DNA of 64,000 nt from Elusimicrobiota bacterium (GCA_016714745.1 JADKCG010000001.1:129236-193235); one strand, 5' to 3'; counted from the stretch's first letter, positions 1-64,000 are shown. Numbers and translations are program-made. The notes: generated from the letters alone by a model not told the origin.

Positions 1-499
1 AATGCGCTCCACTGGGGAAGTTATGGGTATTGACGTGGATTATGGCACGGCCTTCGGGAAATCCCAAGCGGCCGCCGGCGGCGCTTTGCCGAAAAAGGGA
101 ACGATTCTCTTTAGCCTGCGAATTCGGGACCGGGCCCAAGCCCTCCCCATCGCCCGCGCCTTCGAGAAAATGGGATACGGTTTAATGGGTACCGAAGGAA
201 CGGCGGTCTATTTACGGGAGAACGGTTTGAACATTCAGTCCGTCAAAAAAATTGCGGAAGGCAGACCCAACGTGCTGGACGTCATCAAAAATCGGGAAGT
301 GGTGCTGGTGCTCAACACGCCGGAAGGCCACCGTTCTCGTTCCGACGGGTTCCATATCCGCCGCACCGCCCTTCTTTCCAATGTTCCTATCATCACCACC
401 CACGCCGCCGCCCGTGCTGTGGTCGAGGGTTTGCAACAATCCAGAGAACGCCGCTGGGAAGCCCGTTCCCTTCAAGACCTCTACAAGTCTGGGGTGTAG
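1..499 (+). CDS. carB: carbamoyl-phosphate synthase large subunit, C-terminal MGS-like domain (5' end outside window)
   Basis: ORF 2..499 ends with the CarB MGS-like allosteric domain (…GTILFSLRIRDRAQALPIARAFEKMGYGLMGTEGTAVYL…PIITTHAAARAVVEGL). The window begins inside the gene. Confidence 0.8.
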   Translation, partial: MRSTGEVMGIDVDYGTAFGKSQAAAGGALPKKGTILFSLRIRDRAQALPIARAFEKMGYGLMGTEGTAVYLRENGLNIQSVKKIAEGRPNVLDVIKNREVVLVLNTPEGHRSRSDGFHIRRTALLSNVPIITTHAAARAVVEGLQQSRERRWEARSLQDLYKSGV

Positions 500-1309
500 T
501 TACTTCAGAGCCTTTCCGTAGCTTCTACGGATCAGGCGATCGGCGAGAGAGGGAAAGAGGGTGCTGAACCAAATTCCCGGGCGGTTCCACCAGGGGACGT
601 GAATTTCTGTGTTTTTTCCTTCCACGGCTTTCACAACCGCTCGTGCGGCGCGCTCGGCGGACACCCGGGAGCGTTCGTGGGAAGGATACGTAGGGGGAAG
701 TCGGGACCGGTCAAGATTCGCCGGCATTTCGGTTTCTGTGCCTCCGGGAAGAACCAGGCTCATGGTAATTCCCTTCGGGGCCAACTCCATCCGTAACCCT
801 TCCGTCAATCCCAACAACGCAAACTTGCTCGCCGCGTAGGCGGCCATGAAGGGCAAGCCGCGCCGGCTGACCCCGGACCCCACCTGCACGATATGTCCCC
901 CGCCTTGTTTTTCCATCACGGGAATGGCCGCCCGCACCGTTTCAATCGTCGCCCAAAAGTTCGTCTCAAAAATTTCACGCATTTCGTCAACGGGCATGTC
1001 CATAAACGGAGACATGCGCAGAATCCCCGCGTTGTTCACCAAAACGTCCAACCGTCCGAAATGGGCCACCGTGCTCAACACCACCGCCCGGGCCTGGTCC
1101 GGCTGTGAAATGTCCGCCGGCAAAACGAGGGGGGGGCGTTCGCCCCGGGGACATTCGTCCCCTTTTTCAAAGCCGTTGGCCAGGGTGTCCAAGCGGGCCT
1201 TTCGGCGGGCGGTAACAGCCAGTCTCCAGCCACGGGCGGCGAGGAGCTTGGCGGTTTCCCAGCCGATGCCCGAGGAGGCGCCGGTAATAAGCGCAACCTT
1301 AGGAATCAT
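500..1309 (-). CDS. short-chain dehydrogenase/reductase (SDR) family oxidoreductase
   Basis: TGxxxGIG Rossmann motif (KVALITGASSGIGWETA) and NNAG plus the YxxxK catalytic motif (AYAASK). The likely start is the ATG at 1309 (MIPKV), not the longer ORF start that overlaps nadE. Confidence 0.7.
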   Translation of the reverse strand: MIPKVALITGASSGIGWETAKLLAARGWRLAVTARRKARLDTLANGFEKGDECPRGERPPLVLPADISQPDQARAVVLSTVAHFGRLDVLVNNAGILRMSPFMDMPVDEMREIFETNFWATIETVRAAIPVMEKQGGGHIVQVGSGVSRRGLPFMAAYAASKFALLGLTEGLRMELAPKGITMSLVLPGGTETEMPANLDRSRLPPTYPSHERSRVSAERAARAVVKAVEGKNTEIHVPWWNRPGIWFSTLFPSLADRLIRRSYGKALK

Positions 1310-2998
1310 ACGGCCGGAACCGGTTGGTGATGGGCATCCGCCGGTCGCGGCCAAACGCGCGGGGGGTGATTTTGACGCCCAAAGGCGCTTGGCGGCGCTT
1401 GAACTCCATCTCATCGATGGTGCGAAGCGTTTTCGCCGCAACGCCGGGTTCAATGCCGTCTTTAATGATTTCGGCCAAGCCGTGGTTTTCTTCCACGTGG
1501 TGGGCAATGATGGCATCTAAAATGTCGTAGGGCGGAAGCGTGTCTTGATCTTTTTGGTGGCGACGCAATTCGGCCGTGGGGGCGCGGGTGATCGTTGATT
1601 CAGGAATCACGGGGCGTTTGTCCCGTTTGTTCCGCCACCGGGCCAGATCGTAAACGAGGGTTTTGGGAATATCTTTGATCACGGCGAACCCGCCCACCGA
1701 ATCGCCGTAAAGGGTGAAATAGCCGGCGGAAAGTTCCGATTTGTTCCCCGTGGTCAGCACCAGCCAGCCGAATTTGTTGGAGAGGGCCATCAGAAGTGTG
1801 CCCCGCACACGGGACTGTAAATTTTCTTCCGTCACATCCACCGCCCGCCCCGCGAAGAGGGGGGCCAAGGTTTTTAGGTAAGACTGGACTGTTTCTTCAA
1901 TCCCAATGGTCAGAAAGTCGATCCCCAGATTTTTGGCCACAAGTTCCGCGTCGGCTTTGGTCTCCGTGGAATTGAAGCGCGAGGGAAGCGTCACGCCCAC
2001 CACGTTCTCTTTGCCCAGTGCGTCCACGGCAATCGTGGCCACCAAAGCGGAATCGATCCCGCCGGAAAGACCAATGACGACTTTCCCAAAACCGTTTTTC
2101 TGAACATAGTCCCGCGTGCCCAGTGTGAGGGCGGCGTAAATTTCATTTTCCCGAGAGAGAGAACCGTTATTTGTGGGAGCGGGAGTTCTTTTTTGAGAGC
2201 GGGGACCGTTATGGATGTTTCGGCGGCGCGGCCGCGCGCTATCGGCAAGTCCATGTCGACAATGAGAAGTGTCTCCTCAAACATGGGGGCTTGGGCGATG
2301 ACGTTCCCCCTTCGGTCCATCACAAGACTTCCCCCGTCATACACCAATTCGTCCTGGCCGCCGACCATATTGCAATAGGCGATGGCCGACCCGCATTCGC
2401 GGGTCTTTTTTCGAAGGATTTCCAGCCGCTCTTTTATTTTGCCCGCGTGGTAGGGGCTGGCGGATAGGTTGAGAATGACGGAAGCGCCCTGTTCGGCGGC
2501 CGTGAGCGCCGGGCCTTTGGGCCGCCAAACATCTTCACAGATCGAGAACCCGATTCGAACGCCGTTGAGGTCCAACACCGCCGGTTTTTCGCCTTCGGAA
2601 AAATAACGTCGTTCGTCAAAGACCCCGTAGTTGGGTAAAAACCACTTATGAAACGATTGGCGAAACCGGCCGCCAGAGAGGACAAAGGCTCCGTTGTAAA
2701 GGGCATGGCCCTTCTTGGTGGGGGACCCGACCACCACCACGATGTCTTTTGGGACGGAGCGAAGAAGGGCGCGGAGGGATTTTCCCGTTTTGGCAAGGAA
2801 GAGCGGTTCAAAAAGTAAATCTTCGGGCGGATACCCCGTCAGTGCCATTTCGGGGAACAGGACCAGGTCGGCTCCTTTTTCCCGGGCTTGCCGACTGAAC
2901 GACACAATGCGGGCCGCGTTCCCATCGAGATCCCCAACGGTGGGGTTAATTTGGGCGAGCGCGGAGTCGGGGTGCGCGGCGGCCACAGGCGCAGTCAT
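1299..2998 (-). CDS. nadE: glutamine-dependent NAD+ synthetase (CN-hydrolase + NAD synthetase domains), frame-broken near 2100-2200
   Basis: N-terminal nitrilase/CN-hydrolase domain in the frame of ORF 1991..3742 (LVLFPEMALTGYPPEDL…FSICEDVW). The NAD-synthetase domain is in a different frame (ORF 1299..2045; EIYAALTLGTRDYVQKNGFGKVVIGLSGGIDS found by re-translation). One indel lies between the domains. Confidence 0.75.
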
Positions 2999-4225
2999 CT
3001 CCTGCCCCAGATCCTCGGCCAACAAAAGGGCTTCGGCGATTTCTTTCATGGATTTTCGACGGTCCATGCTCTGTTTTTGGATTTCGCGGAAAGCTTCGGG
3101 TTCCGAAAGTCCTCGTTTTTTCATGAGCGCGCCCTTGGCCCGTTCCACGAGCTTCCGTGTCTCCAGCGCTTCCTGAGCAGAAAGCTTTTCTTGAAGAAGC
3201 CGTGTTTGCATAATGGCCGAGGCACATTGGTTGGCCACCGATTGCAGAACCGAAATATCTTCCTTTGAGAAGTCGTATTCCTGGGCAGAGTAGGTGTTGA
3301 TAACGCCCAACACCTTTTCTTTGAACATCATGGGCAGGGACAGCAGGGAGACCAGTCCTTCGGACACCGCGATGTCGGGATAAGAAAACCGTTTATCTTT
3401 CCGCACATCGGCCACGACGATCGGTTTTTTCTCCAACACCGCCCGGCCGGACAAGCTTTGGTCCACGGGAACCGGCGGTTTGTTGCGGTAGGCGTCCGAC
3501 AGCGACTGGGTGGCCGCGATGCGGAGCTGACGTTTTTCTTCGTCCAACAACATCACCGAACAAATCTTCGAGCCCAAAAGCGACGCTGTCATGGCCACAA
3601 TCAATTGGAGAATTTCGTCCATGAACCGATCGGAAGTGACGGTCCGACTCACGGCGGAGAGGGTTTGGATCGCGTCGGCTTTTCGCCGGGTTTCTTCGTA
3701 GAGCCGAGCGTTTTTCAATGGCGCCGCCCACCTGCCGGGCAATGGTCGTCAATAGTTTTAAGGCATGTTCACTGTAAGCGTAGGATTTTTTGTGTTGGAC
3801 GTTGATGACGCCCACCACCCCGTCTTTCACCAATATCGGAACGGAAAGGAACGCCTCGAACTTGTCTTCCGGCAGGTTGTGGAAAAACTTAAACCGATGG
3901 TCTTCATGGGCTTTTCCGGGATGGAGAGGGGTTTTTTGTGTTCCGCGACCCAGCCGGTCAATCCTTCTCCCATGCGCAATCGCAGTTGGTCGATCTCTCC
4001 TGGGTGGGGCGGTTTTGACGCCGACAACACCAGGCTTCGATGCGACGGCTCATGCAGGTAAATGAAACACGCGTCCGCCTTGGTCAACCCGCTGACCAGG
4101 GCAACAATTTCCTGCAAGATGGTGCGCAGGTCAAGGGTGGATCCAATAATGTGCGTGATGCGATGCAATAAATCCAATTCTTCGGTAGTGGAAAGAGAAC
4201 GCGGAACAGTTTTGGCGCGAGGCAT
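2999..4225 (-). CDS. GAF-GAF-ANTAR RNA-binding antiterminator-type regulator (two homopolymer frameshifts; no stop before nadE in the present frame)
   Basis: GAF domain 1 (ORF 3827..4225), continuation in a second frame (KFFHNLPEDKFEAFLSVPILVKDGVVGVINVQ), GAF domain 2 and an ANTAR motif (ETRKLVERAKGALMKKRGLSEPEAFREIQKQSMDRRKSMKEIAEALL) in a third frame. An AGGAG sits 8 nt before the ATG at 4225. Confidence 0.6.
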
Positions 4226-5460: not shown

Positions 5461-6290
5461 TCATGCCGAAAATATTTCAGGGTCGGTCATTGACCTTTGT
5501 CGACGTGCTTCCATTAATAGAATGCCCGCCGCCACGGCCACGTTAAGGGATTCGACTCTGCCTTCCATGGGGATTTTGATCCGCTCAACGGCGAGATCCC
5601 CTAAAGTTTTTGGGTCCACCCCCCTGGATTCGCCCCCCAAAATGAGCACGCAGGGGAGGGTCCAGTTCCATTCGCTGTAGGTGCGCGGACCGGTGGCATC
5701 CGCTACCAGCAACGAAGGGAGGTCTTCATGGTCGTCAGAATGGATTGGACCGATGGAGCGCGGAAAAGGGGCATTCGGAAAGCGCTCCCAGCGGACGCGC
5801 GAAGGGCTTTGGATGAAAGGGGGTCGGCTGTCCCGGGCAGGACACCAACGGCGTTTACCCCGGCCGCTTCCGCCGACCGAACAATCGCTCCCACATTGGC
5901 GGGGGACTGAAGAACGTCCAAAAGAACGATCAAGGGAGTTGGCGTGCCCAGTCCGTTGAGATGAGTGAGGGGGAAAGGTTCGGGTCTGTCCGCTCGAATC
6001 GCGATCCCCGGCGATGTTTCCAAATCAGAGAGGAAGTCCATGACCGAGGGGGACACCGTATACAGGGCGGCGCCCCGTTCTTTGAGGTCCTCCAGAAGAG
6101 GGGCCACCCGATTGTCCGCCGCAATCGCGGGTGTGACCGCCACCTCCCGCGGGGTGAGGGGGGAATCTAAAAACTCTTCCACCAGTCGGCGGCCTTCCAC
6201 CAAAATCGAACGATGGTCTCGGCCGTCACGAGCCTCTCTGAAACGGGCGATCACGGGGTGGGACCGAGAACCGATGGTGGGAATGGACAC
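5461..6290 (-). CDS. SpoU/TrmH-family RNA 2'-O-methyltransferase (frameshift near 5705)
   Basis: N-terminal part in ORF 5703..6290 (…DVLQSPANVGAIVRSAEAAGVNAV). The C-terminal SpoU knot is in ORF 5461..5712 (LILGGESRGV…IPMEGRVESLNVAVAAGILL). Confidence 0.65.
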
Positions 6291-6293: not shown

Positions 6294-7406
6294 TTACTCT
6301 GTGGGAAGTTTCCGTTCTGTGCGGGCCAACTGTTCGCCGTATATCTTCGCGAACGCCAGCACGCTCGCGACGGTCAGGGGGCCCACCAAGAGCCCGATGG
6401 GGCCATAGGCCTGGAGACCGCCCAGGGTTCCGAAGAAGAGAAAGACGATGGGCAGTTTGGCTTTTTCACCGATAATGAAGGGGCGAAGGAAATTGTCGAC
6501 CATGCTGACGACAAGCCCGCCCCAGATCAAAATCCCAATTCCCTGCACCGCCCATCCTTTCAAGAAGAGATAGACTCCAATGGGAAGCCAAATGGCCGCC
6601 GCGCCAACAAACGGAATAAGCGCCATAAACGCTGTGGCAAACCCCAAAACGACCGAAAACCTTACCCCCGCCACAGCGAACCCGATTCCCGCCAGCAGGC
6701 CCTGGACCGACGCGGTCACGAACATGCCACGGACCACGGCCGTGAGAGTTTGGTTTAACCGTCCTAAGATGTGGGTTTTGTAGGCGGTTTCCATGGGAAT
6801 AAGGCCCATTACTTTCTCGGCAAGACGTGTCCGTCCCGGAAGATGAAAAAAGTGTGAAAATCATGATGACCGTTTGAAAGATGAGGAGGAAAACGTTTTT
6901 GACAACGGCGGCTCCCACAGTGGAAACCTTGCGACCCATCGTTTCAGCGGTGCGGAGAATCGTGACGCGGGGGTTGACCCCCGCGTCAAGTAAAATGTCC
7001 TGCGAACGGGCCCAGATCTTTTTGACGGGCGCGGGAAGCCGGTTGAGGATGGCGGCGTCGGGGTCCAGTCGAACTTCCCGCACCTGATCTTGAGCCCAGG
7101 GGTATAACGCGGCCGCTTGTCGACCGAGCAGGGTCAAAAAGAAAGCGGCCGGAACAATGACGATTAAAAAAAGCGCGGTGACGCTCAATCCCGCCGCGAG
7201 GTTTGACCGCCCTTTCGTCCAACGCAGGAACTTGGCGTGCACCGGGTAGAACACCAAGGCCAGAGTGATGGCCACCAAAATTCCTTCCAAAAACGGCGAC
7301 ACGATGCGAAGCAGTTGATATAAAAGAAAGCCAAAACTCCCGAAAAAAAAGATCCGAAACAATACCGGGCGGGATTCCATTCGCCGTTCGGGGAAATTGC
7401 CAGGAT

Positions 7407-7425
<19 letters not shown>
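6294..7425 (-). CDS. AI-2E family (PerM-like) transporter (frameshifted)
   Basis: Two overlapping minus-strand ORFs (6466..7425 and 6294..6809) together give a multi-TM AI-2E-family protein. Confidence 0.6.
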
Positions 7426-9471
<2,046 letters not shown>

Positions 9472-9555
9472 TGAATAATATTATATCAAACAGACGGCCT
9501 TTTTACGGTCATTATGTTGCAAGAGGATGGATAAAGAATTTGACTTGTTTCAGGG

Positions 9556-9584
9556 GCTTGACAGGGGAAGGGATTGAACGCATA
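9556..9584 (+). promoter_or_regulatory. candidate sigma70-type promoter (TTGACA-N17-CATATT) upstream of the acyltransferase gene
   Basis: TTGACA at 9556-9561 and CATATT 17 nt downstream. GGGAGGGG precedes the ATG at 9600. Confidence 0.2.
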
Positions 9585-9599
9585 TTACGGTGGGAGGGG

Positions 9600-10549
9600 A
9601 TGAATCCTCTCTTCGGGACGGGGACAAACCTTATGATTACCTTTGGGGATTTTAAATTTGTGGTGGCGACGACCCCTGAGTTGTTGGAAGGGGTCTTTCG
9701 GCTCCGTTACCAAGTGTATGTGGATGAGTTTGGTTACGAGCACGCCGGGGACCATCCAGAAGGAAAGGAAATGGATGAGTGGGACCCTTTCTCTATCCAT
9801 ATGGCGGCCTTGAACCCTGAAGGCGACGTTGTGGGGACCATTCGGTTGGTTCTTAACTCAACGAATGGGTTGCCCACCTTGAACGTGGTCGTTCCTTTTA
9901 TCAAGATCAGAATCCCCAATCGAGGCACATTGGAGAAGTGTCCCGATTGGCGGTGGCGCGCGTCTTTCCGTCGACGGGTGGAAGACGGGTTTCAAGGAGT
10001 CGGAGTTAGCCTCGCCCAAGTCAAGCATTGCTTTCCACAGCCAGAGAAAGGAATTCCCAGCCAGGAGCGTCGCAAACGATTTTGCTGTGGTCTTGGGGCT
10101 ATTTAAAATCATTACCATGAGCAAACGGATGGATCTAAAGACTGGTATATGGTGGCGGAAAAACAGTTGTGTATCTGAAACGATACCACATCCTTTTAAC
10201 GCCATTGGGCCAGAAATGGATTACCACGGAAACCGTATCCCTTACCTGGGGCACATCCAGGACATTGAAAGCCATGATGATGAAAGTGAGCTCGTCGTTG
10301 GCGGATTCTTTTCAGGAAGGATTGGAGATTAAAAAGCCGATCGTTCCACCGATCGACGAGGCATTACCTCCCCCTGAGCCTGAACCCGTCCATCCGCCCA
10401 CGTCCTATTTTATTCGACCGGAGAAATCGGAGACGGCTCCTGTGACGCTTCCCTTTTCAGAAGAAGAAACGGAACGGAAAGCCCGCGCGGCCGCGGAGGT
10501 CGTGGCGGAAATCGTTTGGCCCCACCGTATCCCCAGACGTCAAGCATGA
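9600..10549 (+). CDS. GNAT-fold N-acyl amino acid synthase-like acyltransferase (at least 3 frameshifts)
   Basis: FVVATTPELLEGVFRLRYQVYVDEFGYEH is the family N-terminal signature. The continuation is scattered over three frames (HIGEVSRLAVARVF; LGLFKIITMSKRMDL; FNAIGPEMDYHGNRIPYLGHIQDIESH). Confidence 0.5.
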
Positions 10550-10550: not shown

Positions 10551-11487
10551 TCAGGGGTGTTCCGCCAACCAACGTTCGGCTTGGATGGCGGCCATGCACC
10601 CCTGGCCGGCGGCAGTAATTGCTTGGCGGTACGTGTGGTCCACGCAGTCTCCCGCGGCAAAAACACCTTCGATGTTGGTGCGGGTGTTTCCGTCGGTTTT
10701 TAAATAGCCCACGTCGTCCAGGTTCAAAATCCCCTTAAAAAGTCCGGTGTTTGGTTCATGTCCAATGGCGAGGAAAAGTCCCGCCGCGGACAGAGGTTCG
10801 ATGGCCCCGGTTTTGACGTTTTTTAATTTCAACTGTTCGAGGGTTTTGTCTCCGCTCGAGTCCTCGAGCGTGTAGGGCGTTTTGATCGTGATTTTGGGGT
10901 TCGCCTTCACGCGTTCAAGCATGACGCGGGAGGACCGGAACTCGTCCCGCCGATGAATCAGAATGACCTGGGAGCCGAACCGGGTCAAATACAAAGCCTC
11001 TTCCATGGCCGTGTCGCCGCCGCCAATGACGGCGATGGGTTTGTTGCGGAAAGAGGGAGCGCGCCGTCGCAGGTGGCGCAGGCGGAAATACCTCGGTTCC
11101 AAAATTTGGCTTCGCCTCGTTGTGGAGTCGTTTGGCCGTGGCACCGGTGGCGATGATCACGGCTTTGGCGAAATACTCCGCTTCGTCCGTCACAATCTTA
11201 AAAGGGCGTTTGGAAAAATCGACGGAGTCGACGTCCTTGTCTAATACTTCCGCGCCAAACCGTTCTGCCTGTTTGCGCATGCGGTTCATGAGTTCGGGCC
11301 CCATGATGCCGTCAGGAAAGCCCGGAAAATTTTCCACCTCGCTCGTGGTCATCAACTGTCCGCCGGACTGGCCTCCCTTCATAAATCCGCCCAAAACAAG
11401 CGGTTTTAAATCCGCCCGAGACGCATATAAGGCCGCCGTATAGCCGGCAGGCCCGGAACCGATAATGATAACGTTGTGTGCATTCAT
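10551..11487 (-). CDS. trxB: thioredoxin-disulfide reductase (frameshift near 11100)
   Basis: [25 protein letters not shown] (FAD GxGxxG motif) from the ATG at 11487, with GAGGGG 8 nt upstream. The C-terminal half is in ORF 10551..11144 ([17 protein letters not shown]…[10 protein letters not shown]). Confidence 0.75.
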
Positions 11488-12030
11488 GGAATTCCCCTCA
11501 GTAGTTTTCTTGAAACGGAAAGAGTAACGCAACACGTCTCGGATAAGCAGAATACTTACGGGCGTGCCGTCAGGCCTCAACACGGGGACATGCCGGTGGC
11601 CGCCCATGGCCATTTTATTGAGGGCGTAGGCGATGGGGTCTTCGGGGTGCACATAGCTGGGGTCGCGGGTCATGATCTCTGCCACTTTGACCTTGGACAG
11701 ATCGGTGTGGACGCCCGCCACCCGCAGAAGCAAATCCCGGTTCGAGAGGATCCCCACCATTTTTTGGTTCTGATACACCAAGACACAGCCTTTTTTTCCT
11801 TCTGGAAAATTTTGACAATTTTTCTCGATGGAATCGTCGGGGCTGCACACCAGCAAATCGAGGCCTGTCAGCAGTTCCGACACCGGTTCGTTCAAAAGGG
11901 CGTCCTGAAATGCGTCGCCCTTCCGCCGAGAAGCGGGAATGTCACGTTTCATCAACGAATGCAAACACTGGGCGCAATGGTCGGCGCCCAAGGGGTATTC
12001 AAAACCGCAAAAAGGGCATGAGTTTTTCAT
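11488..12030 (-). CDS. zinc-ribbon + CBS-pair domain protein (no stop before trxB in the present frame)
   Basis: CPFCGFEY…CAQC zinc ribbon followed by two CBS motifs. A one-base deletion in the AAGAAAACT run would restore a TGA overlapping the trxB ATG (ccATGA). Confidence 0.5.
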
Positions 12031-13058
12031 TGGACCGTCCAGGTGGAATCGTCATAGAGAAGGTTCTTTAAGTTGCCGCGTCCTTCTTTTTTGATCACTG
12101 TTTCAATTTGTTCATTTAAGAGATCATCGTAGGTCGGTTTTTCCACACAACGGAACACGCCGAAGGGAACGGGGAATTCAGGGTAGACCAACTGCGTTAA
12201 CAGGTAGGCGTGGTTGGGCCGGGGGTCCGCCTCGTCATGAATCATAAGGGCCTGCGTATTGGTGGCATCAAAGCCTACTATCTCCGGGTAAAGCCCATTC
12301 AAACGGATCGACTTTTTTTTTGTCGGGCCGGCCAAAAACCAACGGTTTGCCATGTTCCAGGTAACCATGCGGTCTTCGCGCGTGTCGCGCCCGTCACGGG
12401 GCGTGGGTCTTATCGTTAAAAATGATGCAGTTCTGATAAATTTCGATGAAAGAGACGCCCTTGTGCCGCATGGCCCGTTCGAACATGGCGCCCATGTGGC
12501 GGGGGTCGGTGTCGAGCGTGCGGGCGATAAAAGTGGCTTCGGACGCAATGGCCAGGCAGAGCGGGTTGATGGGATGCTCGATGGATCCATAGGGGGAGGA
12601 TTTGGTCACTTTCCCCATGGCCGAGGTGGGGGAATATTGTCCTTTGGTGAGCCCATAAATTTGGTTGTTGACCAGAGGATATTGAAGTTGAGGTTTCGCC
12701 GCATGGCGTGGAGGATGTGGTTTCCTCCAATGGAAAGGCCGTCCCCGTCCCCCGTGATCACCCAAATGGAGAGGTCCTTATTGACACAACGGAGCCCTGT
12801 GGCCACAGTGGGAGCTCGACCATGGATCGTGTGGAACCCATAGGTGTTCATGTAATAGGGAAACCGCGACGAACACCCGATACCGGAAACAAAAACATAG
12901 TTCTCCCGTGGGATATCGAACTTGGCCAGGGTCTGCTGGACAGTTCCTAAAATCGAATAATCGCCGCACCCCGGGCACCAGCGCACTTCCGCGCCCGAAA
13001 CAAAATCGTTCTTGGTGTATTTCGGTCGCGACGCGCCAACGGGTAAGTTGACTTCCAT
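12027..13058 (-). CDS. korB: 2-oxoglutarate:ferredoxin oxidoreductase beta subunit (TPP-binding), two frameshifts
   Basis: [11 protein letters not shown] and [12 protein letters not shown] (ORF 12606..13058), [11 protein letters not shown] (ORF 12394..12765), and the C-terminal part in ORF 12027..12590. Confidence 0.7.
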
Positions 13059-17100: not shown

Positions 17101-17147
17101 TTCCAGACGCTCCGGACAGTCGCCCTGCGCCAACCGGGGAATCCCGG

Positions 17148-19381: not shown

Positions 19382-19391
19382 GAAGCCTCCA

Positions 19392-38908: not shown

Positions 38909-38957
38909 GCTCGCGTTCTTTGGTTGAATACCCTCCTTGCATCGACGGAGGAAATCC

Positions 38958-43935: not shown

Positions 43936-44229
43936 AAAAGAAACGGGCCCCGTCGGGCCGCTCCCACGCGGCACTTCCGCTATCGCGGTCGCCATGCGCG
44001 CGATTTTGTGCCGGAGGCTGACCCACCTCCCGCATCAGCGGCTCTGCCGCCCCAGGTGTCGAGAGCTCTGCGAGCGGCCGGCCCTAAGAAGCCTACGGGC
44101 CGGATCGGACAGGGTCAGCCCCGCTATCGGCACAAAACCGTGCTCGAATCGCCTCAATGGGGAATCAAAGGGCCAAACCAAAAGATTCACCAAAAAGGAT
44201 CAATTCCAAAACAAGAATCACCGAACAAC

Positions 44230-45618: not shown

Positions 45619-45864
45619 AATCATCCCAGCGGTAACGTGTCATAGCACTCTATGTCCGTGCGAAAAACAAGATGAAATAACGCTGACATATTACGCCGTA
45701 ATGTGTCGGGATGTTTATCAAGACCTGACCCCTTCCCCCCCATCCTCCGCTAAGGAGTATTTCCTCGTCTACCAGGCTTCCGTTATTGGGTGAAATCGAG
45801 AATTTGTAGCGCGGGCATCCGATCGCGCTATCGGAAGTGCCGCGTGGAGAGGCCTGCCCGGCCG

Positions 45865-50370: not shown

Positions 50371-50671
50371 ACCTTCAGTTTACCCCACAAATTCGAAAGA
50401 TTGCCTTAAGAACTTGTAAACAACCTGTAAACTTTTCAATCCGAGTTCAATGTGTTAGTGCAACAGATGTCGGGAAGGTTTTTCGCGCTAAAATGAGGCC
50501 CTAGGAAAACCTACCGACACTTAACAAAAGAGGAACGCTATGGTTTCGGGTAGGGTGGGCCCAGAGTATTTATGTCGTGAGACCCTAACAGGTAGGAGAA
50601 GAAAAGGGGAAAAGTGTTTTTTTGTTCATGAGGAAAATCTGCAACTTTTGATTTGATAAAATGCTGGCGAC

Positions 50672-52140: not shown

Positions 52141-52854
52141 ATGAAAAAAAACGACAAAACAAATCCTTTATTTTTTTGGACGTCCACCGGCAAGAAAGTG
52201 CTGATGGGCGGGTCCGGGTTGGCCTTGGTCGGTTTTGTCGTCGGCCATCTCGTCGGTAACTTGCAAATGTTTTTGGGGCCGGAAGCGGTGAACCGCTACG
52301 CGGCCTTTCTAAAAAGCACGGGGGAACTCCTCTGGGTGGTGCGGGGGGGATTGGTGGCCATGGTCGCGATCCATATCGCCACGGCCGTTTCTCTCAGCCG
52401 TGAGAACGCGGCCGCTCGGCCCGTGGGGTATGCCGTTAAAAGTTATAAAGAGGCGACGTACGCTTCCCGCACCATGGTCTACTCCGGCCTCGTCATTTTT
52501 GCCTTCGTGGTTTACCACCTTTGTCACTTTACCTTGCTCGTCACCCATCCCGAATACCGTCATTTGGTGGACGCCCAGGGCCGCCATGACGTTTACTCCA
52601 TGGTGGTTTTGGGCTTTATGCGTCCGGGGATCAGCGTCTGGTATACGGTGAGCGTGTTATTGCTGGGGATGCACCTCTCCCATGGGTTGTACAGCATGTT
52701 CCAGTCCCTTGGACTTCAGTCGGAAACGCTTCGCCGACGGGTTCGACCGGCGGCCGTCGCGGTGGGGGGGCTCCTCTTTTTAGGTTTTGCTTCCATCCCG
52801 GCGGGAGTGCTGTTGGGGTTGATCCGGTTACCGGCGGGAGGGGGACTTCCATGA
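52141..52854 (+). CDS. sdhC: succinate dehydrogenase/fumarate reductase cytochrome b subunit (type B, single 5-TM anchor)
   Basis: [13 protein letters not shown]… with five predicted TM helices and conserved His residues. ATGA overlap with sdhA. Confidence 0.75.
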
Positions 52855-54763
52855 TTTTGGATTCCAAAATTCCAGCCGGGCCGATCGCGGAGAAGTGGGA
52901 CAAACATAAATTTGACATGAAACTCGTCAATCCGGCCAACAAGCGGCGCTACAGCGTCATTGTGGTGGGATCCGGTTTGGCCGGCGCTTCAGCGGCCGCT
53001 TCTTTGGCCGAGCTGGGCTACAACGTAAAATGTTTCTGTTATCAGGACAGTCCCCGCCGGGCCCACTCCATCGCCGCCCAGGGGGGCATCAACGCCGCCA
53101 AAAACTATCAGAACGACGGCGATAGCGTTTATCGGCTTTTCTACGACACCGTCAAGGGCGGCGATTTTCGGGCCCGCGAGGCCAATGTGTACCGGCTCGC
53201 CCAGGTCAGCGCCAACGTGATCGACCAGTGCGTCGCTCAGGGCGTTCCTTTCGCGCGGGAGTATGGGGGCTTCTTTCCAACCGCTCTTTCGGCGGCGCCT
53301 TGGTTTCCCGCACCTTCTACGCCAGAGGACAGACCGGTCAACAATTGCTCCTGGGCGCCTACCAGGCCCTGTCCCGCCAGATTGGGCTGGGAACGGTGCA
53401 AATGTTTTCCCGAACCGAAATGCTTGACCTGGTGGTGATCAACGGGCAGGCCCGCGGCATCGTCGTGCGGAACCTCGTCACGGGGGCCATCGAATCCCAC
53501 GCCGCCGACGCTGTCGTGCTGGGGACCGGCGGGTACTCGAACGTTTTCTTTCTGTCCACCAACGCCAAAAACTGCAACACCACCGCGATCTGGCGCGCCC
53601 ACAAAAAGGGCGCCTACTTGGCCAACCCTTGCTACACCCAAATTCATCCCACCTGCATTCCCCAGTCGGGCGACCATCAGTCCAAACTGACGCTGATGTC
53701 GGAATCCTTGCGGAACGACGGGCGCGTCTGGGTGCCCAAGGCCGCCGACGATAAAAGGGCTCCCGGGGATATACCTGAAAGCGAGCGGGACTATTATCTC
53801 GAGCGGCTCTACCCCACCTATGGCAACTTGGCTCCGCGTGACATTTCCTCCCGCGCCGCCAAGCGCGTGTGCGACGAAGGGCGTGGCGTAGGCCCGGGCG
53901 GCCGAGGGGTCTACCTGGATTTTGCTGATTCGCTGAAACGCCTGGGAGAGGGCGTGGTTCGGGAACGTTACGGCAACTTGTTCGATATGTACGAGCGCAT
54001 CACCGGTGAAAATCCCTACCAAGCGCCCATGCGCATTTATCCGGCGGTCCATTACACCATGGGGGGCCTCTGGGTGGATTACAACCTCATGAGCAATCTG
54101 CCGGGCCTGCACGTCATCGGCGAGGCCAATTTCTCCGACCACGGCGCCAATCGTTTGGGCGCCAGCGCATTGATGCAGGGGTTGGCGGACGGCTACTTCG
54201 TCCTCCCATACACCATCGGCCATTATTTCGCCTCCGTCAAACGGGACCCGGTCACGACGGACCATCCCGAGTTCAAGAAAGCCGAAGAATCGATCCGGAC
54301 CCAGACGAACCGCTTGCTCGCTGTCCAAGGCAAACGAACCGTGCTCTCCTTTCATCGCGAACTCGGCAAAATCATGTGGGACGAGTGCGGAATGGCGCGC
54401 ACGGAGGCCAGCCTGAAAAACGCGCTTCAACGGATTCCCGCCCTGCGTGAAGAGTTTTGGAAAAATGTTCGGGTCACCGGTCAGAGCGAGGATTTCAATC
54501 AGGCCTTGGAGCAAGCCGGGCGGGTGGCCGATTACTTGGAATTTTCCGAACTGCTGTGCGCCGACGCGTTGCACCGGAAGGAATCGTGCGGCGGGCATTT
54601 CCGAGAGGAGTATCAGACCGAAGAAGGGGAAGCCCAACGCGATGATGCGAATTTCGCCTACGTGGCCGCCTGGGAACACAAAGGGGTGGGCCGGCCCGCC
54701 GAACTCCACAAAGAGCCCCTCGTCTTTGAAAACGTCCATCTTCAGCAGAGGAGCTACAAATGA
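52851..54763 (+). CDS. sdhA: succinate dehydrogenase/fumarate reductase flavoprotein subunit (frameshift near 53270)
   Basis: FAD-binding N-terminus ([14 protein letters not shown]…[10 protein letters not shown]) in ORF 52851..53438. The remainder (…[10 protein letters not shown]…) is in ORF 53228..54763. A G-run indel at about 53270 separates them. Confidence 0.85.
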
Positions 54764-55860: not shown

Positions 55861-56283
55861 ATGGGGAACATTGCGAACGATCTGAGGTCGGCCCTGGCGC
55901 AGGACGGCAAGCGATGGACGGGAGTGAGGGAAACGGTGCTCTCGGTGTTAGAAAAAAGCGCGTTGCCGATTTCGGCCAAAGACATTTTTAAACAGGTGCG
56001 CTCGAGCGGGGTGAATTTGGCTTCGATCTATCGAACGACCGAAATGCTGGCTGATCGGGGAATCGCCATGCAGGTGGAATCCCGAGACGGCGTCCGCCGA
56101 TATGAATTGTCTGACCGCTATCGGCCGCACCATCACCACGTGGTCTGCCGGGACTGCGGGGAAACGCGGGACGTGTCCGGTTGCGGGGTCAAAGGGTTGG
56201 AAGAGAGAGCCGCGCGTTCGACTGGATTTAAAATTTTGGCGCACCAGTTGAGCTTGACCGGGCTCTGCCCCCGGTGTTCTTGA
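55861..56283 (+). CDS. Fur-family metalloregulator (Zur/Fur)
   Basis: DNA-binding helix region plus an HHHH…C…CG……CPRC metal-binding tail. Confidence 0.8.
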   Translation: MGNIANDLRSALAQDGKRWTGVRETVLSVLEKSALPISAKDIFKQVRSSGVNLASIYRTTEMLADRGIAMQVESRDGVRRYELSDRYRPHHHHVVCRDCGETRDVSGCGVKGLEERAARSTGFKILAHQLSLTGLCPRCS

Positions 56284-57384
56284 AGCATTTTTTTAAACTC
56301 GTAATGCAAACAATTATCAATAAAATTCGGAGATCCACAATGGTTTCGATGTTTCTGCGCTTTTTCAAGAACCGTTTCATTGACAAGAGTCTTTTTTTCG
56401 TTGCGAGGAGAGAGGGGACCTTTTTCTTCTGTTTGATCTTTGGTGTTGGCGTGGGGTTGGGCACGTCCATGAAAATGAATCCTCCCCAAATAGGCGTCGT
56501 GGCCGCTCATAGCATCTTGGGGGATTGGGTTCGCGAAGTGGCGGGGCCGGGGGTCTCGGTGCGGGTGTTTGTCGGGCCGAGCGCTGACGCCCACACCTAC
56601 CAACCGAGCCCGGACGACGTGCGTCTTTTGGCGGACGCCCAGGTTTTGGTGTTCAGCGGGGTCCACTTTGAACCCTGGCTTCCGGACTTGATTCGATCTT
56701 CGCGGACAAAGGCCAGAATGATCGATCTCTCCAACGCGGTTTCTCTGAGACGATTGGCGGGGCCTCATGGCGAAATCGACCCGCATTATTGGAACGACGT
56801 GCGCAATGCCCAATCCGCGATCCCGGGAAGACGCGGTGGTGGCCCTGCTTTCCAACGGCATGTTCGCCTTGGGGTTGGTTTGGATGGCCCGGTTGCGATC
56901 GTTTCGAGACCTGTCCCACATGTTGTTTGGCAACATCCTGGGGGTCTCGTCATTGGACCTTTGGGTCATGGCAGGGGTGGTAACGGTTTTGGCCGCGGCC
57001 CTCCTCCTTTTCAATAAAGAATGGGAACTGGTCTCCTTTGACCCCGTTCAGGCAAAGATGATTGGACTGCCGGTGGAACGAATGCGGTTACTGCTTCTGC
57101 TTCTCCTGGTTCTGGTGGTGGTCGCCGGAATTCAGGTGGTCGGAACGGTGTTGACCGGGGCCCTCCTGATCGCGCCGGCGTCGGCTTCGTTGTTGGTGTG
57201 CCGCCGTCTTTCACGGGTCATGATCCTGTCCTGCGCGGTCGGCGCTCTCGCAGGGATTTTGGGGCTATTGGCGTCCTATCTTTGGTCCCTGCCGTCCGGG
57301 GCGACCATTGTTTTGTTCGGCACGGCGTTTTACGTCATGGCCTGGGGGATTCATATTTTCATGAAAAGAAGGAGACTCTTGTGA
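56274..57384 (+). pseudogene. remnant of a metal ABC transporter: N-terminal lobe of a TroA/ZnuA-like binding protein fused to the C-terminal two-thirds of a ZnuB-like permease; ATPase gene absent
   Basis: The frame of ORF 56274 has hydrophobic leader-like stretches around TFFFCLIFGVGVGLGTS and QIGVVAAHSILG, then a TroA-like N-lobe ending GEIDPHYWNDVRNA, followed by nonsense. ORF 56767..57384 matches ZnuB TM helices 4-8 only. The 1.1-kb span is too short for intact A, C and B genes. Confidence 0.5.
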
Positions 57385-58782: not shown

Positions 58783-59284
58783 TGGGGTTTGAAAAAAAAG
58801 TTGAGGGATCAAGGACATTCCTTTTGAGGTTCGCCCGGGGGAGGTGTTCGGCTTTTTAGGAGGCTTCGACTCCGTAGGCAAAGCGACGGAGCCGAACGGG
58901 CGAGGAGTGACAGGGACCATCCCTGAGGCGGTGCGCGGCCTCAACGGCCGCCGGGTGGAAGTGGTGGGCTATGTGATGCCCATTGACATTGACGACAAGG
59001 GGATCCGTTCCTTTTCGCTGATCAAAGACCAGGCGTCTTGCTGTTTCGGTCAGACGCCGCGCATCAATCACTGGGTCTATGTGACCTTAGCGGGGCGGTC
59101 CCTTCGCGAGATTGATTTTGAGCCGAAACGGGTCGTCGGCACCTTGACGGTGGGTGAACATTACGACCAAGGCTATCTGGTGTGTTTGTATCGGATGACG
59201 GGGGAAAATCGTAGAAAAGAACCCCCCTCAGTGATGGAATTTATTTGTTTTCAGTCAAAAACAAAAAGAGGAGATAAAAAATGA
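58783..59284 (+). CDS. DUF3299-domain protein (N-terminus probably frameshifted at an A8 run)
   Basis: VVGYVMPI…SFSLIKDQASCCFGQTPRINHWVYV fits the DUF3299 pattern. The ATG at 58783 is in another frame. Confidence 0.55.
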
Positions 59285-60546
59285 AACAGCAGCAAAGTGT
59301 TGCATGGATGGCGGCCCTATCTGTGCTTCTTGCCCCGGCCGTTGCGGGTGCCCAGAGCAATCCGCTGGGAAGCGCCAAGATGAACCCTGACGTTTCCGCT
59401 ATTGTCGATATGTTCTACACAAACGATGATACGAAAGAAGGGATGGGACACGTCAAAGAAGAGATCGCGGGATTTACCGAAACGCCCGGGGATCGTCGAA
59501 GAAGGTGAGCATGCCCACGGCACCGAGGAGGGGTTCAATCTTCGGCATCTGGAGCTTCAATTCTCCGCCGCTGTGGATCCCTATTTCAAGGGGTCGGCCA
59601 TCGCCGCCGTCGACATGGAAGGCGCCGAGTTGGAAACCGCCGAGGTTGAAACCACTTCTCTCCCCTGGGGGCTGACGGTGAAAGGCGGAAAATTCTACAG
59701 CAACTTCGGCTACATCAACTCCAAACACGCCCATCAGTGGGATTTTACGGACCAGACCCTGGTTTATGAACTTCTGCTCGGCGAACACGGGTTGAACGAC
59801 AAGGGGCTTCAAGTGTCTTGGCTGGCGCCGACGCCGTTCTATATGCTTTTGGGAGCGGAATCTTTCCAGGGGAACAACGAAAAAATGTTTGCCTATCACG
59901 GCGACGGTTCCCTTCCTCGCCACGAGGGGCCCCGGGTCGGGACCGGCTGGCTCAAAGTGTCCCCCAACCTCCCTGGGGCCCATGCTCTGCAGGTCGGCCT
60001 TTTCGCCTCAAAGGCGTCCATCAGGAGGAACTGAGCCTTGACGATTCGGATCCCGGGGCTGACCAATTCCGGGACGGGTACAACGCCTTCCACGGGGCCG
60101 ACCTCATCTACAAATTAAACAGCCCCAAATCCTATGGCCAGAGCGATTTCTTCCTGCAAGGCGAATACATGAAGCGCAAAAAAAACATGGAAATCGTGGA
60201 AGACACTGGTCTGATTCCCGCTGTCGTGGGCACCCACCGCGTGGACGTTCAAGACGGCTACTACGCCCAGGCGGGGTACGGATTTTTGCCCCGGTGGCGG
60301 GCCGCCGCGCGTTGGGAAGAGCTGGGTCTGACGAACAAAACGGACTTGCCCGACGGAACGTCTCTCGTCAACGGGTCGAGCCGCAAATTTTCCGGCATGG
60401 TGGACTTTACGCCCACGGAATTCTCCCGCCTGCGTCTGCAGTTCAATAATGGTTCCTACGCCACGGAGGACGGCCGCATGCACGGTTCGGAGATTTTCTT
60501 GCAGTGGATGGTCTCCATTGGCGCCCACGGTGCGCACTCGTTCTAA
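59281..60546 (+). CDS. outer-membrane beta-barrel (porin-like) protein, two frameshifts
   Basis: Signal peptide MKQQQSVAWMAALSVLLAPAVAGAQS. Alternating amphipathic strands across ORFs 59281/59402/59818. Ends …GAHGAHSF* with the terminal Phe typical of OM barrels. Confidence 0.5.
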
Positions 60547-60633: not shown

Positions 60634-61543
60634 ATGAAGAAGCTTTTGGCATTGTTCAGCATCCTGTGGTTCGGCGGGCGGGCCTTCTGCCGCGCCTTTG
60701 AAAGTAGTGACCACCACGCCGGACCTGGCGGATCTGGCCCGTCAAGTGGGCGGAGACCGTGTGAAGGTGGATGGCTTGTCCCGAGGGTCCCAGGACCCCC
60801 ATTTCGTCGAAGCGAAACCTTCCTTGATCGTGAAAGTTCGCGACGCGGACCTGTTTGTCCAGACCGGTTTGGACCTCGAGATCGGCTGGGCTCCGCTATT
60901 GATCCAGGGGGCCCGCAATGCTCGCGTGCAACGGGGCGCCAAAGGATTTTTGGATGCGTCGGCTTTCATTCAACCCCTGGAGGTCCCAACCGTCGTGAGC
61001 CGGGCGGCGGGGGACGTTCACCCGGGGGGCAACCCCCACTTCCTCGCCGATCCGCACAATGCGTTGGCGGTGGTGAAAGCCTTGGAGGGAAAACTGGCCG
61101 AGCTGGACCCCGCCGGAGCGGTGGTCTACAAAAAAAATGCCGAGGATTATTCCGCCCGGCTGTCCGCCAAAATCGCTGGCTGGGAAAAACGCATGGCTCC
61201 CGCCAAAGGGGCGCGTTTTGTCAGCTACCACAAAAATATGGTCTATTTTGCTGACCATTTCGGCCTTGTGTCGGATGGACAAATCGAGCCCAAACCGGGA
61301 ATCCCGCCCACGGCCAAACACACGGCGGACCTCATCGCCGTGATGAAAGAACGGCGCACGCCGCTGATCCTCACCAATCCTCATTTCGAGCGGCGCACGC
61401 CCGACTCTTTGGCTCGGGCCACGGGAGCCAGTGTGGTAACGGTGGCGCTCACCCCGGATGCCGTCCCGGAGGCGGCCGATTATATTTCCGCCGTTGAATT
61501 CAACGTCGCCGGCGTTTTTCGGGCGTTAACCCCAAAACAATAA
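60634..61543 (+). CDS. znuA: TroA/ZnuA-family metal-binding lipoprotein (frameshift near 60690)
   Basis: Signal peptide MKKLLALFSILWFGG in the frame of ORF 60634. The mature domain in ORF 60698..61543 has paired His sites (DVHPGGNPHFLADPHN). Confidence 0.7.
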
Positions 61544-61655: not shown

Positions 61656-62399
61656 ATGGCGCCTCTCATTCAGTTTGACAAGGCCAGTTTGGGGTATGGC
61701 TCGGCGACGGTTCTGCGCGACGTCAGTCTTCGGATTGACGAAGGGGAATCCGTGGGCCTCGTGGGACCGAACGGGTGTGGGAAAACCACATTCCTTCGGG
61801 CGGTATTGGGATTGCTCCCCCCTTTGGCCGGGCGGGTGGACCGCCGAGCGGGGCCGAGGTTCGCCTATGTTCCCCAAGCGGACGAGATGAACCTCCTCTG
61901 GCCGTTAACCGTGAAAGACGTGGTGGAACTTCCCGCCCGGGCGAAACGCTGGGGGGGGCGGGTCGCTGACTCGGACGCCTGCCGGGCGCGGGAAGCCATG
62001 GCGCGCGCTGGCGTGGAGCCGATCGCCGATCAACTTTTGCGCGAGGTCTCGGGCGGACAAAGGCAGAGGGCCGCCCTCGCCCAGGCCCTGGCCCAGGCGC
62101 CGGACGTCTATTTGTTGGACGAGCCCACCAAAGGGTTGGACGTGGTGGCCGAACGGGACCTGTTGGCTCTTGTCGCGGGTTTGTCGGAGGGGGGGAAGAC
62201 GGTTTTTCTGGTCAGCCATTCCCTCCATATTCCCCTCAACCTTTCCAAACGGATCCTCCTCTTTCATCAGGGGGCGGTGATCTCCTCCACGCCGGAGGAT
62301 ATTATTCGATCGAAACGGTTGGAAGAGGTGTACGGGGTGCCTTTCGTCCACATGGAACAAAACGGGCACCGGTGGGTTGTGCCCGAGGGGGTCCGATGA
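61656..62399 (+). CDS. znuC: metal ABC transporter ATP-binding protein
   Basis: Walker A GPNGCGKTT, signature LSGGQRQR, Walker B LLDEP. Confidence 0.8.
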   Translation: MAPLIQFDKASLGYGSATVLRDVSLRIDEGESVGLVGPNGCGKTTFLRAVLGLLPPLAGRVDRRAGPRFAYVPQADEMNLLWPLTVKDVVELPARAKRWGGRVADSDACRAREAMARAGVEPIADQLLREVSGGQRQRAALAQALAQAPDVYLLDEPTKGLDVVAERDLLALVAGLSEGGKTVFLVSHSLHIPLNLSKRILLFHQGAVISSTPEDIIRSKRLEEVYGVPFVHMEQNGHRWVVPEGVR

Positions 62400-63209
62400 G
62401 TTTCCTGGAGTTGCCGTTCATGCGGACCGCTTTCGCCGCGGGTCTTTTCGCGGGCACGGCCCTGTCCGTCATCGGAATCTTCTCGGCGACGAGGAGCGTG
62501 GCTTTTTCCGGATTGGCGGCTTCTCAACTGGCGGCCCTGGGCGGCGTGGTGGGGGTCGTCTTGGGTCTTCATGTTGGCGCGAGCGTTTTCTCCTGGTCTT
62601 TCGTTGTGGCGGGGTTGATGGCCCTGGCCTTTCTGTCGCGCTCCCGAAAAACGTCGGCCGACAGTTGGGTGGCGACCCTCTATGTCCTGGGCGCGGCCCT
62701 GGCGGTCTTGGTGTTGTCCAAATCCCCGCGCGGCGAGAGCGAGGCCCTCGGGGTGTTTTTTTGGAAACATTTTGTCCTTGGGAACCCTGGAAGTGTGGGA
62801 AGCCGGGGCGCTGTTCGTTTTAACCTTGGCGGGCTTGGCGTTGTGGTTCCGTCGGTGGGTATGGCTGGCCTTCGACCCGGTGGGCGCGGAGGTGGCGGGA
62901 CTGCGGGCGGGGCTTTGGAACGGGATCTTCCAGTTTTTCTTTGCGGCGGCCCTCACGCTCTCCATTCACATCTTTGGCGTCTTGTTGTCTTTCGCCTATC
63001 TCATTCTGCCGGCCACCGCCGGCCTCTTGGTCGTTCGGCGACTCCGAAGCCTGGTCATCTTCTGCGTTGTTTCTTCCGCGGTGGTCACGGCAGTGGGATT
63101 TGAACTTTCCTTCCGCTGGGATTTTCCCACAGGCCCCTTCGTCTCCGCTCTCTTGGCCCTCCTGGCCATCGGCGCCCGCCTTTACTCTTGGCGCAGAGGT
63201 GAGGGGTAA
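62396..63209 (+). CDS. znuB: metal ABC transporter permease (frameshift at a T9 run near 62752-62762)
   Basis: MSFLELPFMRTAFAAG… in ORF 62372. The C-terminal helices are in ORF 62682..63209. ATGA overlap with znuC. Confidence 0.75.
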
Positions 63210-63946
63210 AAGGACATTTTTCCCGGCGCGCTTTCGGCCCGCACGGGCTCAATGCGTTTAATTCCGTCTCGGTTCAGCACCAGGCGGATGCGCTCGTAGC
63301 GGGTTTCTCTTTTTGAGGTGAATCGAAGAATCACGTTGACGTGATACACGCGGGCGCCGGGAATTCTTTCACTTCGACCATCTTTTAACGCGTAGAGCGG
63401 TTTCACCGGTTCGTCCATTTTTAACAGGAAATTGCGGAGATTGAATCGGACAATGTCGGTGATGCCGGTTTTCCGTTTATGGAATTTCAAAAATTGGTTT
63501 GGATACAGTGTGATGTCTTTTGTGTAGTGGATCACTTTTTCTGCCCGCCAGGTGTTTTCGATTTCTGTGATATGGTCCCGGTTCCTCAACTGCAGGGCCA
63601 CGGGGTCCACGCGTTTTTCCGGCACGAACCCCACGGCTTCTCGGCAAACCCCCATCTTCTTTCCGGTCAAGGGATCATAGATGGAGGTCGATTGATCGTA
63701 GACATTTTTCGAAAGCCAACTTTGTACGCGGGCCTGGGAGATCGCTTTCATTCGGTCTTTCAGCATATAGCTGAGGACCAATATGACGAAGAAGCCCATC
63801 GACAGCGTGCCATAGACTTTTTGGTAATAAAACGCCACCGCCGTTGCGAACAGCATGGCAAATCCCGCCCCCATGGCGAGCAGAATTTGTTCGAGCCCTC
63901 GATCTCCCTCCCGTTTTCTCACCGTCAAATGCAATACGCTCCCCAT
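63182..63946 (-). CDS. hypothetical membrane protein (may extend beyond the window end)
   Basis: 254-aa ORF with two N-terminal TM helices. No family recognised. Confidence 0.35.
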   Translation of the reverse strand: MGSVLHLTVRKREGDRGLEQILLAMGAGFAMLFATAVAFYYQKVYGTLSMGFFVILVLSYMLKDRMKAISQARVQSWLSKNVYDQSTSIYDPLTGKKMGVCREAVGFVPEKRVDPVALQLRNRDHITEIENTWRAEKVIHYTKDITLYPNQFLKFHKRKTGITDIVRFNLRNFLLKMDEPVKPLYALKDGRSERIPGARVYHVNVILRFTSKRETRYERIRLVLNRDGIKRIEPVRAESAPGKMSFYPSPLRQE

Positions 63947-64000
63947 GAACTTTTTTAAAACGCTCAGCCGGAATACCAGTGTTTCGTTCTCATGGCTTTC

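Follow-up and report, generated by a model that had tools for sequence, protein, structure and literature searches.

Dense one- and two-nucleotide frameshifts in an Elusimicrobiota metagenomic contig: very probable long-read consensus error rather than gene decay

Introduction

When conserved housekeeping genes of a bacterial contig are broken again and again by insertions or deletions (indels) of a base or two, does the damage belong to the organism or to its public record? The question is raised by a gene-dense stretch of 64,000 nt (~56% G+C) from an Elusimicrobiota bacterium (GCA_016714745.1, JADKCG010000001.1:129236-193235), which in its full length is called the window here. An original prediction, made from the sequence alone, held that more than 20 conserved genes in it are split across reading frames by single-base errors, all in homopolymers. 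Comparison with intact orthologues leads us to conclude that the frameshifts are very probably errors of sequencing or assembly, an artefact rather than a biological feature, and that the genes of the organism itself would be intact.

Coding direction alternates along the window: minus at 1-28.7 kb, plus at 28.9-45.6 kb, minus again at 46.2-50.4 kb and plus at 50.6-63.2 kb. Its NrfA, ArgS, RecQ, PilT, SdhB, ZnuC and NamZ are identical to GenBank proteins within the series MBK8574229.1-MBK8574279.1, named "MAG: ... [Elusimicrobia bacterium]" and carried by a 217,287-bp contig of a metagenome-assembled genome (MAG).

Intact relatives as the measure of the breaks

The three coding-strand frames were translated, open stretches were joined, and the products were scanned with Pfam profiles. 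Indels were located with a protein-to-DNA aligner that permits shifts of +/-1 and +/-2 nt between intact orthologues and the window, and each event was then examined by DNA comparison of its surroundings. For window 1-15.4 kb the colinear reference is L001, an Illumina-type MAG contig from a relative within the Elusimicrobiota, whose NamZ is 76% identical and whose genes are all intact; L086, a Joint Genome Institute contig (ArgS 90% identical), is colinear with 26.5-45.6 kb; and P0416 is a homologue that bridges the junction in the large "island" gene described below. Three Logan contigs bear proteins identical to those of the window and, judging from how long they are, we infer that they were made from accurate reads. 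Two of these, L084 and L085, together span window 34,992-42,303 at 97.8-99.8% nucleotide identity and are of the same species; the third, L087, from the Logan assembly of a different run (SRR26424858), is likewise of the same species and spans 57,034-64,000 at 98.5% nucleotide identity. Six exact-protein look-ups (NamZ, PilT2, SdhB, a short-chain dehydrogenase/reductase [SDR], a CBS-pair protein and the source's NrfA) yielded no same-species contig, so there is no same-species reference at 1-15 kb, and the NrfA neighborhood is not syntenic in relatives L081-L083. The zone in which breaks are densest (2-12.7 kb) is thus covered by L001 alone, at ~77% nucleotide identity, and sites there rest on protein alignment.

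Frameshift-aware orthologue alignment, direct DNA comparison and Pfam coordinates together locate 40 indels, each of 1-2 nt, across 21 genes. Chains of open reading frames (ORFs), together with switches in the frame favored by codon usage, point to three probable extra indels (~16.05, 18.46 and 18.83 kb) in two more genes that have no usable homologues. All of the genes predicted to be split check out, and genes for a CBS-domain protein, a LytR-type protein and a DUF3299 protein are broken in addition. The division of single Pfam domains between frames makes the pattern plain: GcpE falls into 1-67 and 67-246, Pyr_redox_2 into 2-118 and 137-291, SpoU_methylase into 2-78 and 80-141, TPP_enzyme_C into 2-78 and 79-151, FAD_binding_2 into 2-107 and 113-414, and ABC-3 into 3-108 and 115-254; in the first 13 kb a GAF domain is also divided, AI-2E 155-324 lies in a second frame, and CN_hydrolase is parted from NAD_synthase. 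Conserved peptides alternate among two or three frames inside one gene, while at every site compared the orthologues in L001, L086 and L087 are intact in a single frame.

Error or decay

The most direct comparison is with L087, which encodes intact DUF3299, 421-residue outer-membrane protein, ZnuA and ZnuB at five of the five coding indels that it covers (+A, +G, -1, +C and +T in the window). Only 79 substitutions separate the two sequences beside these five, and such a ratio of frame-breaking indels to substitutions is implausible as natural variation in conserved genes.

Could the indels nonetheless be real mutations, the mark of a very recent mass pseudogenization in a decaying or mutator lineage? 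They do exist in the deposited sequence, a deletion of ~2 kb at one of the znu loci resembles real decay, and the same-species references are all other strains. Yet the genes affected include essential single-copy ones (ispG, trxB, korA, korB, nadE, proA and sdhA), several of them struck repeatedly, the source appears to be a long-read MAG, and one stretch of 13 kb is fully clean. The lesions are small indels plus the one ~2-kb deletion, rather than the mixture of nonsense mutations, larger deletions and insertion sequences (IS) that pseudogenes gather: in the repaired alignments no nonsense codon accompanies the ~40 frameshifts. Nor do the broken genes look relaxed. After repair, 28 of their codon differences are synonymous and 12 non-synonymous, not far from 11:3 in intact neighbors (counts that are small), and amino-acid identity to L001 is similar in broken genes (61-93%) and intact ones (77-86%). 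We consider genuine mass pseudogenization very unlikely, and error rather than decay, as originally proposed, holds up on the intact orthologues, L087 among them, the lack of nonsense codons and the mostly synonymous differences. In its specific form, a recently mutator or decaying activated-sludge population that has lost dozens of housekeeping genes within less than 1.5% substitutions, the idea is scarcely credible; were it true, the population would perhaps be sustained by dependence on co-resident strains.

Programmed recoding, by ribosomal frameshifting or transcriptional slippage that restores the frames in vivo, would spare the genes in another way. Long A/T tracts are known sites of transcriptional slippage in endosymbionts, and a few of the breaks do lie in long runs (A9 at 12321, A7 at 11797 and T7 at 62756). 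Most sites have neither a slippery motif nor a long run, however, one gene carries as many as seven shifts of both signs, and no site is conserved, the relatives using one frame throughout. Recoding is effectively refuted, its probability being vanishingly small.

Compensatory selection was also rejected: only 4-5 of the 10 multiply hit genes are net in-frame against 3.3 expected, and the actual frames between paired shifts contain stops, so the pairs are not functional compensation.

A separate observation comes from the left edge of the window, where the C-terminal end of what appears to be CarB, the large subunit of carbamoyl-phosphate synthase (2-499, plus strand), is 99% identical to L001 in amino acids and only ~79% in DNA. 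Such conservation shows strong purifying selection in the lineage, in contrast with the adjacent broken genes.

The spectrum of the indels

There are 26 deletions to 10 insertions, and two of the events are of -2. About half of the indels are recognizable run-length changes: A4/A5 at 3713, A5/A4 at 3909, A9 at 12321, A7 at 11797, C5/C4 at 12401, T6/T7 at 62756, G3/G4 at 59488 and A3/A4 at 59205. The remainder belong to runs of at most 2 or have surroundings such as GCGCGC[G]T, TT[C]GG, CGC[]CTC and ATGATGATG. The view that every break sits in a homopolymer is therefore not borne out. A run of at least 4 lies within +/-6 nt of 18 of 39 sites (46%), as against 36% of random 13-nt windows, a difference that is not significant (p=0.13); runs of at least 7, taken alone, look enriched (3 of 39 sites versus 1.7%). 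Because 36% of random 13-nt windows here hold a run of at least 4, the position of a break in a homopolymer is a weak diagnostic. Aligning the split proteins with their orthologues had been proposed as a check, with error to be concluded if almost all changes were of 1 nt in runs of 4 or more; the shifts are of 1-2 nt, but not nearly all of them fall in such runs.

The example sites offered for the homopolymer view were largely sound in themselves. GAAAAAC is found at 3710-3716 (it had been placed at about 3697), GGAAAAGCC at 3909-3917, an A5 run at 14942-14946, GGCCC at ~28971 and a G5 run at 53265-53269; the supposed T9 run is a T7 run at 62756-62762.

These features bear on the flow chemistries of 454 and Ion Torrent, whose miscalls would be confined to mononucleotide runs. 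Some of the changes are of that textbook kind (A4/A5, A5/A4, A9, A7, T6/T7, C5/C4). Half or so of the sites lie outside runs, though, and the association with runs of at least 4 is not significant; there are -2 events, insertions outside runs (TT[C]GG) and an exactly placed site, CGC[]CTC, that is also outside one. A 217-kb metagenomic contig is moreover atypical of these platforms, and a Nanopore project is what the accession series indicates. A 454 or Ion Torrent origin is thus most improbable.

A patchy density

The mean rate of ~1 indel per 1.5 kb, higher than the one break per 2-3 kb first estimated, conceals great unevenness. Density reaches 2.4 per kb in the zone at 2-12.7 kb, 1.4 per kb in that at 59.2-62.8 kb and ~1.0 per kb between 26.6 and 32.5 kb, and it drops to zero at 32.5-45.6 kb, an indel-free 13.1 kb for which p=6e-6 under a uniform rate. 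Events also cluster finely, with 32% of inter-event gaps at or below 70 nt and pairs 8-60 nt apart, upon a background that varies on a ~10-kb scale.

The clean block itself (32600..45640, plus strand) carries two pilT genes, a cNMP-GAF gene, rsfS, argS, pilZ, bioB, an SDR gene, a ketoacyl-synthase gene, bioF, bioD and bioA with no frameshift when aligned with L086. Across 34992-42303, where the window genes are intact, there is likewise no 1-nt gap against same-species L084 and L085.

Patchiness at this scale, and clusters of indels among substitutions such as that at 60007-60055, might suggest a consensus artefact of another sort, in which co-assembled close strains were merged or cross-polished; closely related Elusimicrobia MAGs and contigs at 97.8-99.8% nucleotide identity do exist. 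Here such a process is indistinguishable from plain low-coverage error, and strain merging alone makes no 1-nt indels in conserved codons, and we give it very little credence as the explanation.

Source of the errors

What, then, would have produced the breaks? The deposited contig very probably holds residual consensus errors from noisy long reads, the organism's own genes being intact, and the platform would almost certainly be Oxford Nanopore of the R9 era. Its 1-2 nt indels, mostly deletions, would be those that short-read polishing failed to repair in places of poor long-read consensus, and the patchiness would presumably reflect how deep the long reads were locally or which stretches escaped polishing. 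Mixed, deletion-biased and partly homopolymeric indels that vary at the scale of read lengths fit a Nanopore assembly of modest depth, not 454 or Ion Torrent; of the three platforms named in the original prediction, only nanopore stands.

The provenance of the record points the same way. The accession series MBK6-MBK9, with its many "MAG: Elusimicrobia bacterium" entries, includes MBK8002123.1, a protein that a published paper (PMC10448046) assigns to the MAGs recovered from activated sludge by Singleton et al. 2021. In the pipeline for those MAGs, Nanopore reads were assembled with CANU v1.8, and polishing then went through Racon, medaka v0.6.5 (twice) and one further Racon round with Illumina reads under --include-unpolished (PMC8012365). 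By its accession series, the record of the window appears to belong to this Danish activated-sludge Nanopore MAG set. Indels that break genes are well documented in long-read assemblies (bioRxiv 10.1101/285049; PMC12007338).

Several points weigh against an origin in long-read error. The case is built on assembled sequence rather than on raw reads, which makes the proof indirect. It is the accession series and the record name, not the record itself, that tie the window to the Nanopore dataset. In the densest zone, 2-12.7 kb, comparison is with a relative at only ~77% nucleotide identity, and L087 is a different strain (98.5%) whose intact genes are strictly no proof for this population. Insertions prevail at 59-63 kb (4 of 5), opposite to the deletion bias elsewhere, and the ~2-kb deletion that joins parts of znuA and znuB is not accounted for by base-level error.

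The broken genes

Between 1 and 15 kb most of the broken genes lie on the minus strand. In nadE, for glutamine-dependent NAD synthetase (1302..2962), a -1 shift near 2202 parts CN_hydrolase from NAD_synthase in a product 76% identical to L001. Upstream of it, the regulator with the architecture GAF-GAF-ANTAR (3002..4225) has one A too many (+1) at 3710-3716 (A5; A4 in L001) and one too few (-1) at 3909-3917 (A4; A5 in L001), and is 93% identical to L001 once its frame is repaired. Between the two, at 2996..3012 (minus strand), the stop codon is lost and the two genes are fused in frame, presumably by a single shift. The proposal that removing one base would undo this fusion appears correct: one G fewer in a G4 run (CCCC on the plus strand, ~3006-3009) would give an end in ...LGRR* with an ATGA overlap of start and stop, and in the L001 counterpart DNA and three-frame comparison find stop and start overlapping as GTGA.

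Farther along the same strand, a spoU-type rRNA methyltransferase gene (5494..6284) has -1 near 5716, by Pfam split and L001 alignment; a gene for an AI-2E family transporter (6327..7395) has -1 near 6851, in a T6 run of the coding strand, and -1 near 6828, outside any run; and ispG (GcpE; 7413..9490) has -1 near both 9200 and 9171, again by Pfam split and alignment. The heaviest burden falls on a plus-strand gene for a GNAT-like acyltransferase (9562..10438), which takes seven indels within 380 bp (-1 at 9898, +1 at 9962, -2 at 10002, -1 at 10136, -1 at 10171, -1 at 10194 and +1 at 10276); frameshift-aware alignment with the intact 314-residue L001 orthologue finds both sides of all these shifts conserved.

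The minus-strand trxB (10554..11487) has -1 near 11114 and -1 near 11052, which split Pyr_redox_2 and are seen also by alignment. The neighboring gene for a CBS-domain protein (11505..12048, minus strand) has +1 at 11823 (A5) and -1 at 11797 (A7), and at 11506-11523 one to three further indels abolish its stop and fuse it to trxB. The fusion itself had been noted in the original prediction; in L001 the CBS gene terminates in ...KKNY* 10 nt ahead of the trxB ATG. Then follows korB (12033..13070, minus strand), with five events (-1 at 12676, -1 at 12401 where C5 became C4, -1 at 12393, -1 at 12364 and +1 at 12321 in an A9 run); after repair it is 89% identical to its orthologue, and its TPP_enzyme_C domain is split across two frames. 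At the N-terminus of korA (14915..14950, minus strand) the conserved KQILTAVTVRFAGDSGDG has no in-frame start, the start lying in another frame; a single shift in the A5/G4 runs near 14940 is proposed with medium confidence, and the first korA start codon in the ORF list is at 14854.

Both genes that have no usable homologues lie farther along, on the minus strand. One encodes a membrane protein of unknown family (15567..17224), in which ORFs of 443 and 188 amino acids overlap and the best codon-usage frame switches at ~16050, pointing to a probable shift near 16050. The other encodes a lipoprotein with an F5/8 type C domain (NADase_transloc by Pfam; 17939..19399), in which a chain of three ORFs and codon-usage switches at ~18810 and ~18480 point to probable shifts near 18830 and 18460.

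Alignment with L086 locates the others. The leader of a 1185-residue S8 peptidase (27493..27606, minus strand) is in a different frame from its body, with a shift near 27515; the gene for a 307-residue secreted or outer-membrane protein (27658..28576, minus strand; 78% identity) has -1 near 28548 and -1 near 27853; proA (28829..30135, plus strand; 90% identity) has -1 near 28971 (AACCGGCCC); and the gene for a LytR-CpsA-Psr protein (31303..32592, plus strand; 83% identity) has -2 near 32395 and -1 near 32439. At the -2 site of the last the window reads TGGGAAT, and about two added bases restore a conserved W-G-N.

Beyond the clean block, the large island gene (46253..50379, minus strand) has -1 near 47807, where GCCCGG probably reflects C4 reduced to C3; repaired, it encodes ~1,420 amino acids, and identity to P0416 is 79% through the junction. 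In sdhA (52851..54763, plus strand) a shift at 53265-53276, in a G5 run and probably -1, leaves FAD_binding_2 in two ORFs.

The five events seen against L087 fall in four plus-strand genes. The DUF3299 gene (58844..59233) has +1 A at 59205 (A3 to A4) by DNA comparison; the gene for the 421-residue outer-membrane protein (59280..60543) has +1 G at 59488 (G3 to G4) and -1 at 60007, with no run, where L087 has an intact 421 residues; in znuA of the second znu locus (60634..61540) a +1 C outside any run, at 60672 (TT[C]GG), falls within the signal peptide, L087 having an intact 302 residues and Pfam finding ZnuA 1-257; and znuB of that locus (62396..63206) has +1 T at 62756 (T6 to T7), which splits ABC-3, where L087 has an intact 270 residues. 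Pfam gave no match for the island gene, the membrane protein, the pieces of the outer-membrane protein or the 307-residue protein.

A deletion at the first znu locus

The first znuA/znuB pair, which had been read as another small shift, is a deletion junction of ~2 kb. Pfam coordinates join ZnuA 1-111 to ABC-3 75-254 at ~56806-56820 within a plus-strand remnant at 56232..57381, and what is gone is the 3' half of znuA, the 5' third of znuB and znuC in its entirety. The remnant has no detectable similarity to the complete znuA-znuC-znuB locus at 60.6-63.2 kb, and for that reason repeat collapse was rejected as the origin of the junction. It may be an operon that has really decayed, or the deletion may have arisen in assembly.

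Other features of the window

Three observations concern the clean block and its right flank. Toward the 5' end of the ketoacyl-synthase gene, at 40862-40897, an 18-nt unit (GCCCCGAATGGGGCCTTC) has two more copies in the window than in L084, 36 nt in all and in frame; this difference in copy number is natural tandem-repeat variation between strains. The pilZ-bioB spacer (38647-38871) is also variable, with an 11-nt insertion relative to L084 and an unalignable stretch of 159 nt in the window and 51 nt in L084. Downstream of bioA, inverted repeats of ~20 nt (TTAACCCGAAAAGTTCAGTTGG ... CCAACTGAACTTTCCGGGTGAA) flank a noncoding element of ~165 nt (within 45870-46136), with an extra copy of the left repeat at 45870. 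Similar intergenic sequence occurs in L001 (4809-4976) and L086 (19035-19240), and the element, which has no Rfam match, looks like a miniature inverted-repeat transposable element or a repeat of the repetitive extragenic palindromic type. Scans of the window for tRNAs and Rfam families returned no matches.

The island gene is of low G+C (48-51%) and begins with a domain of ~590 amino acids that has no Pfam match. In a representative library of 1.84 billion proteins this domain has 7,713 homologues (E<=1e-3), and among the best 150 of them most are giant proteins of 1,500-7,800 amino acids in which the domain is N-terminal. The family appears to be uncharacterized.

Consequences for the public record

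The importance of these breaks is practical rather than biological, in that a public MAG record carries ~1 gene-breaking error per 1.5 kb in places. The run of accessions from MBK8574229 (NamZ) to MBK8574279 (ZnuC) covers window 4263-62399. For the ~12 genes, mostly broken, that we count between NamZ and the M15 peptidase it lists 14 accessions, and it is therefore probable that fragments of genes have been annotated publicly as proteins in their own right. Gene content, pseudogene counts and completeness estimates are unreliable until the contig is re-polished, as are the individual proteins of the dense zones (ispG, trxB, korAB, nadE, sdhA and znu). More generally, error density in hybrid-polished long-read MAGs can be nil in one part of a contig and above 2 per kb in another.

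Comparison with known systems

Bacteria restricted to hosts are known for accumulating pseudogenes, among them Mycobacterium leprae, Sodalis and, within the Elusimicrobiota, the termite-gut endosymbiotic Endomicrobium lineage. The window resembles them in that many housekeeping genes are frameshifted. It differs in having no nonsense codons, IS elements or relaxed substitution, and only the one deletion of ~2 kb; unlike in those bacteria, intact genes are kept by relatives that share the habitat, and the contig itself has a part free of errors.

With errors of 454 and Ion Torrent sequencing the window shares some pure run-length changes, and it is set apart from them by the half of its indels that lie outside runs, by its -2 events and by the very great length of the contig.

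The closest likeness is to errors described in long-read assemblies from Nanopore or PacBio continuous long reads ("Mind the gaps"; Kastor). There too, indels of 1-2 nt split conserved proteins, outlast several rounds of polishing, are biased toward deletion and only partly associated with homopolymers, and are found by comparing predicted proteins with full-length homologues. From these known errors the window shows no essential difference; what distinguishes it is patchiness, from 2.4 per kb to zero over 13 kb.

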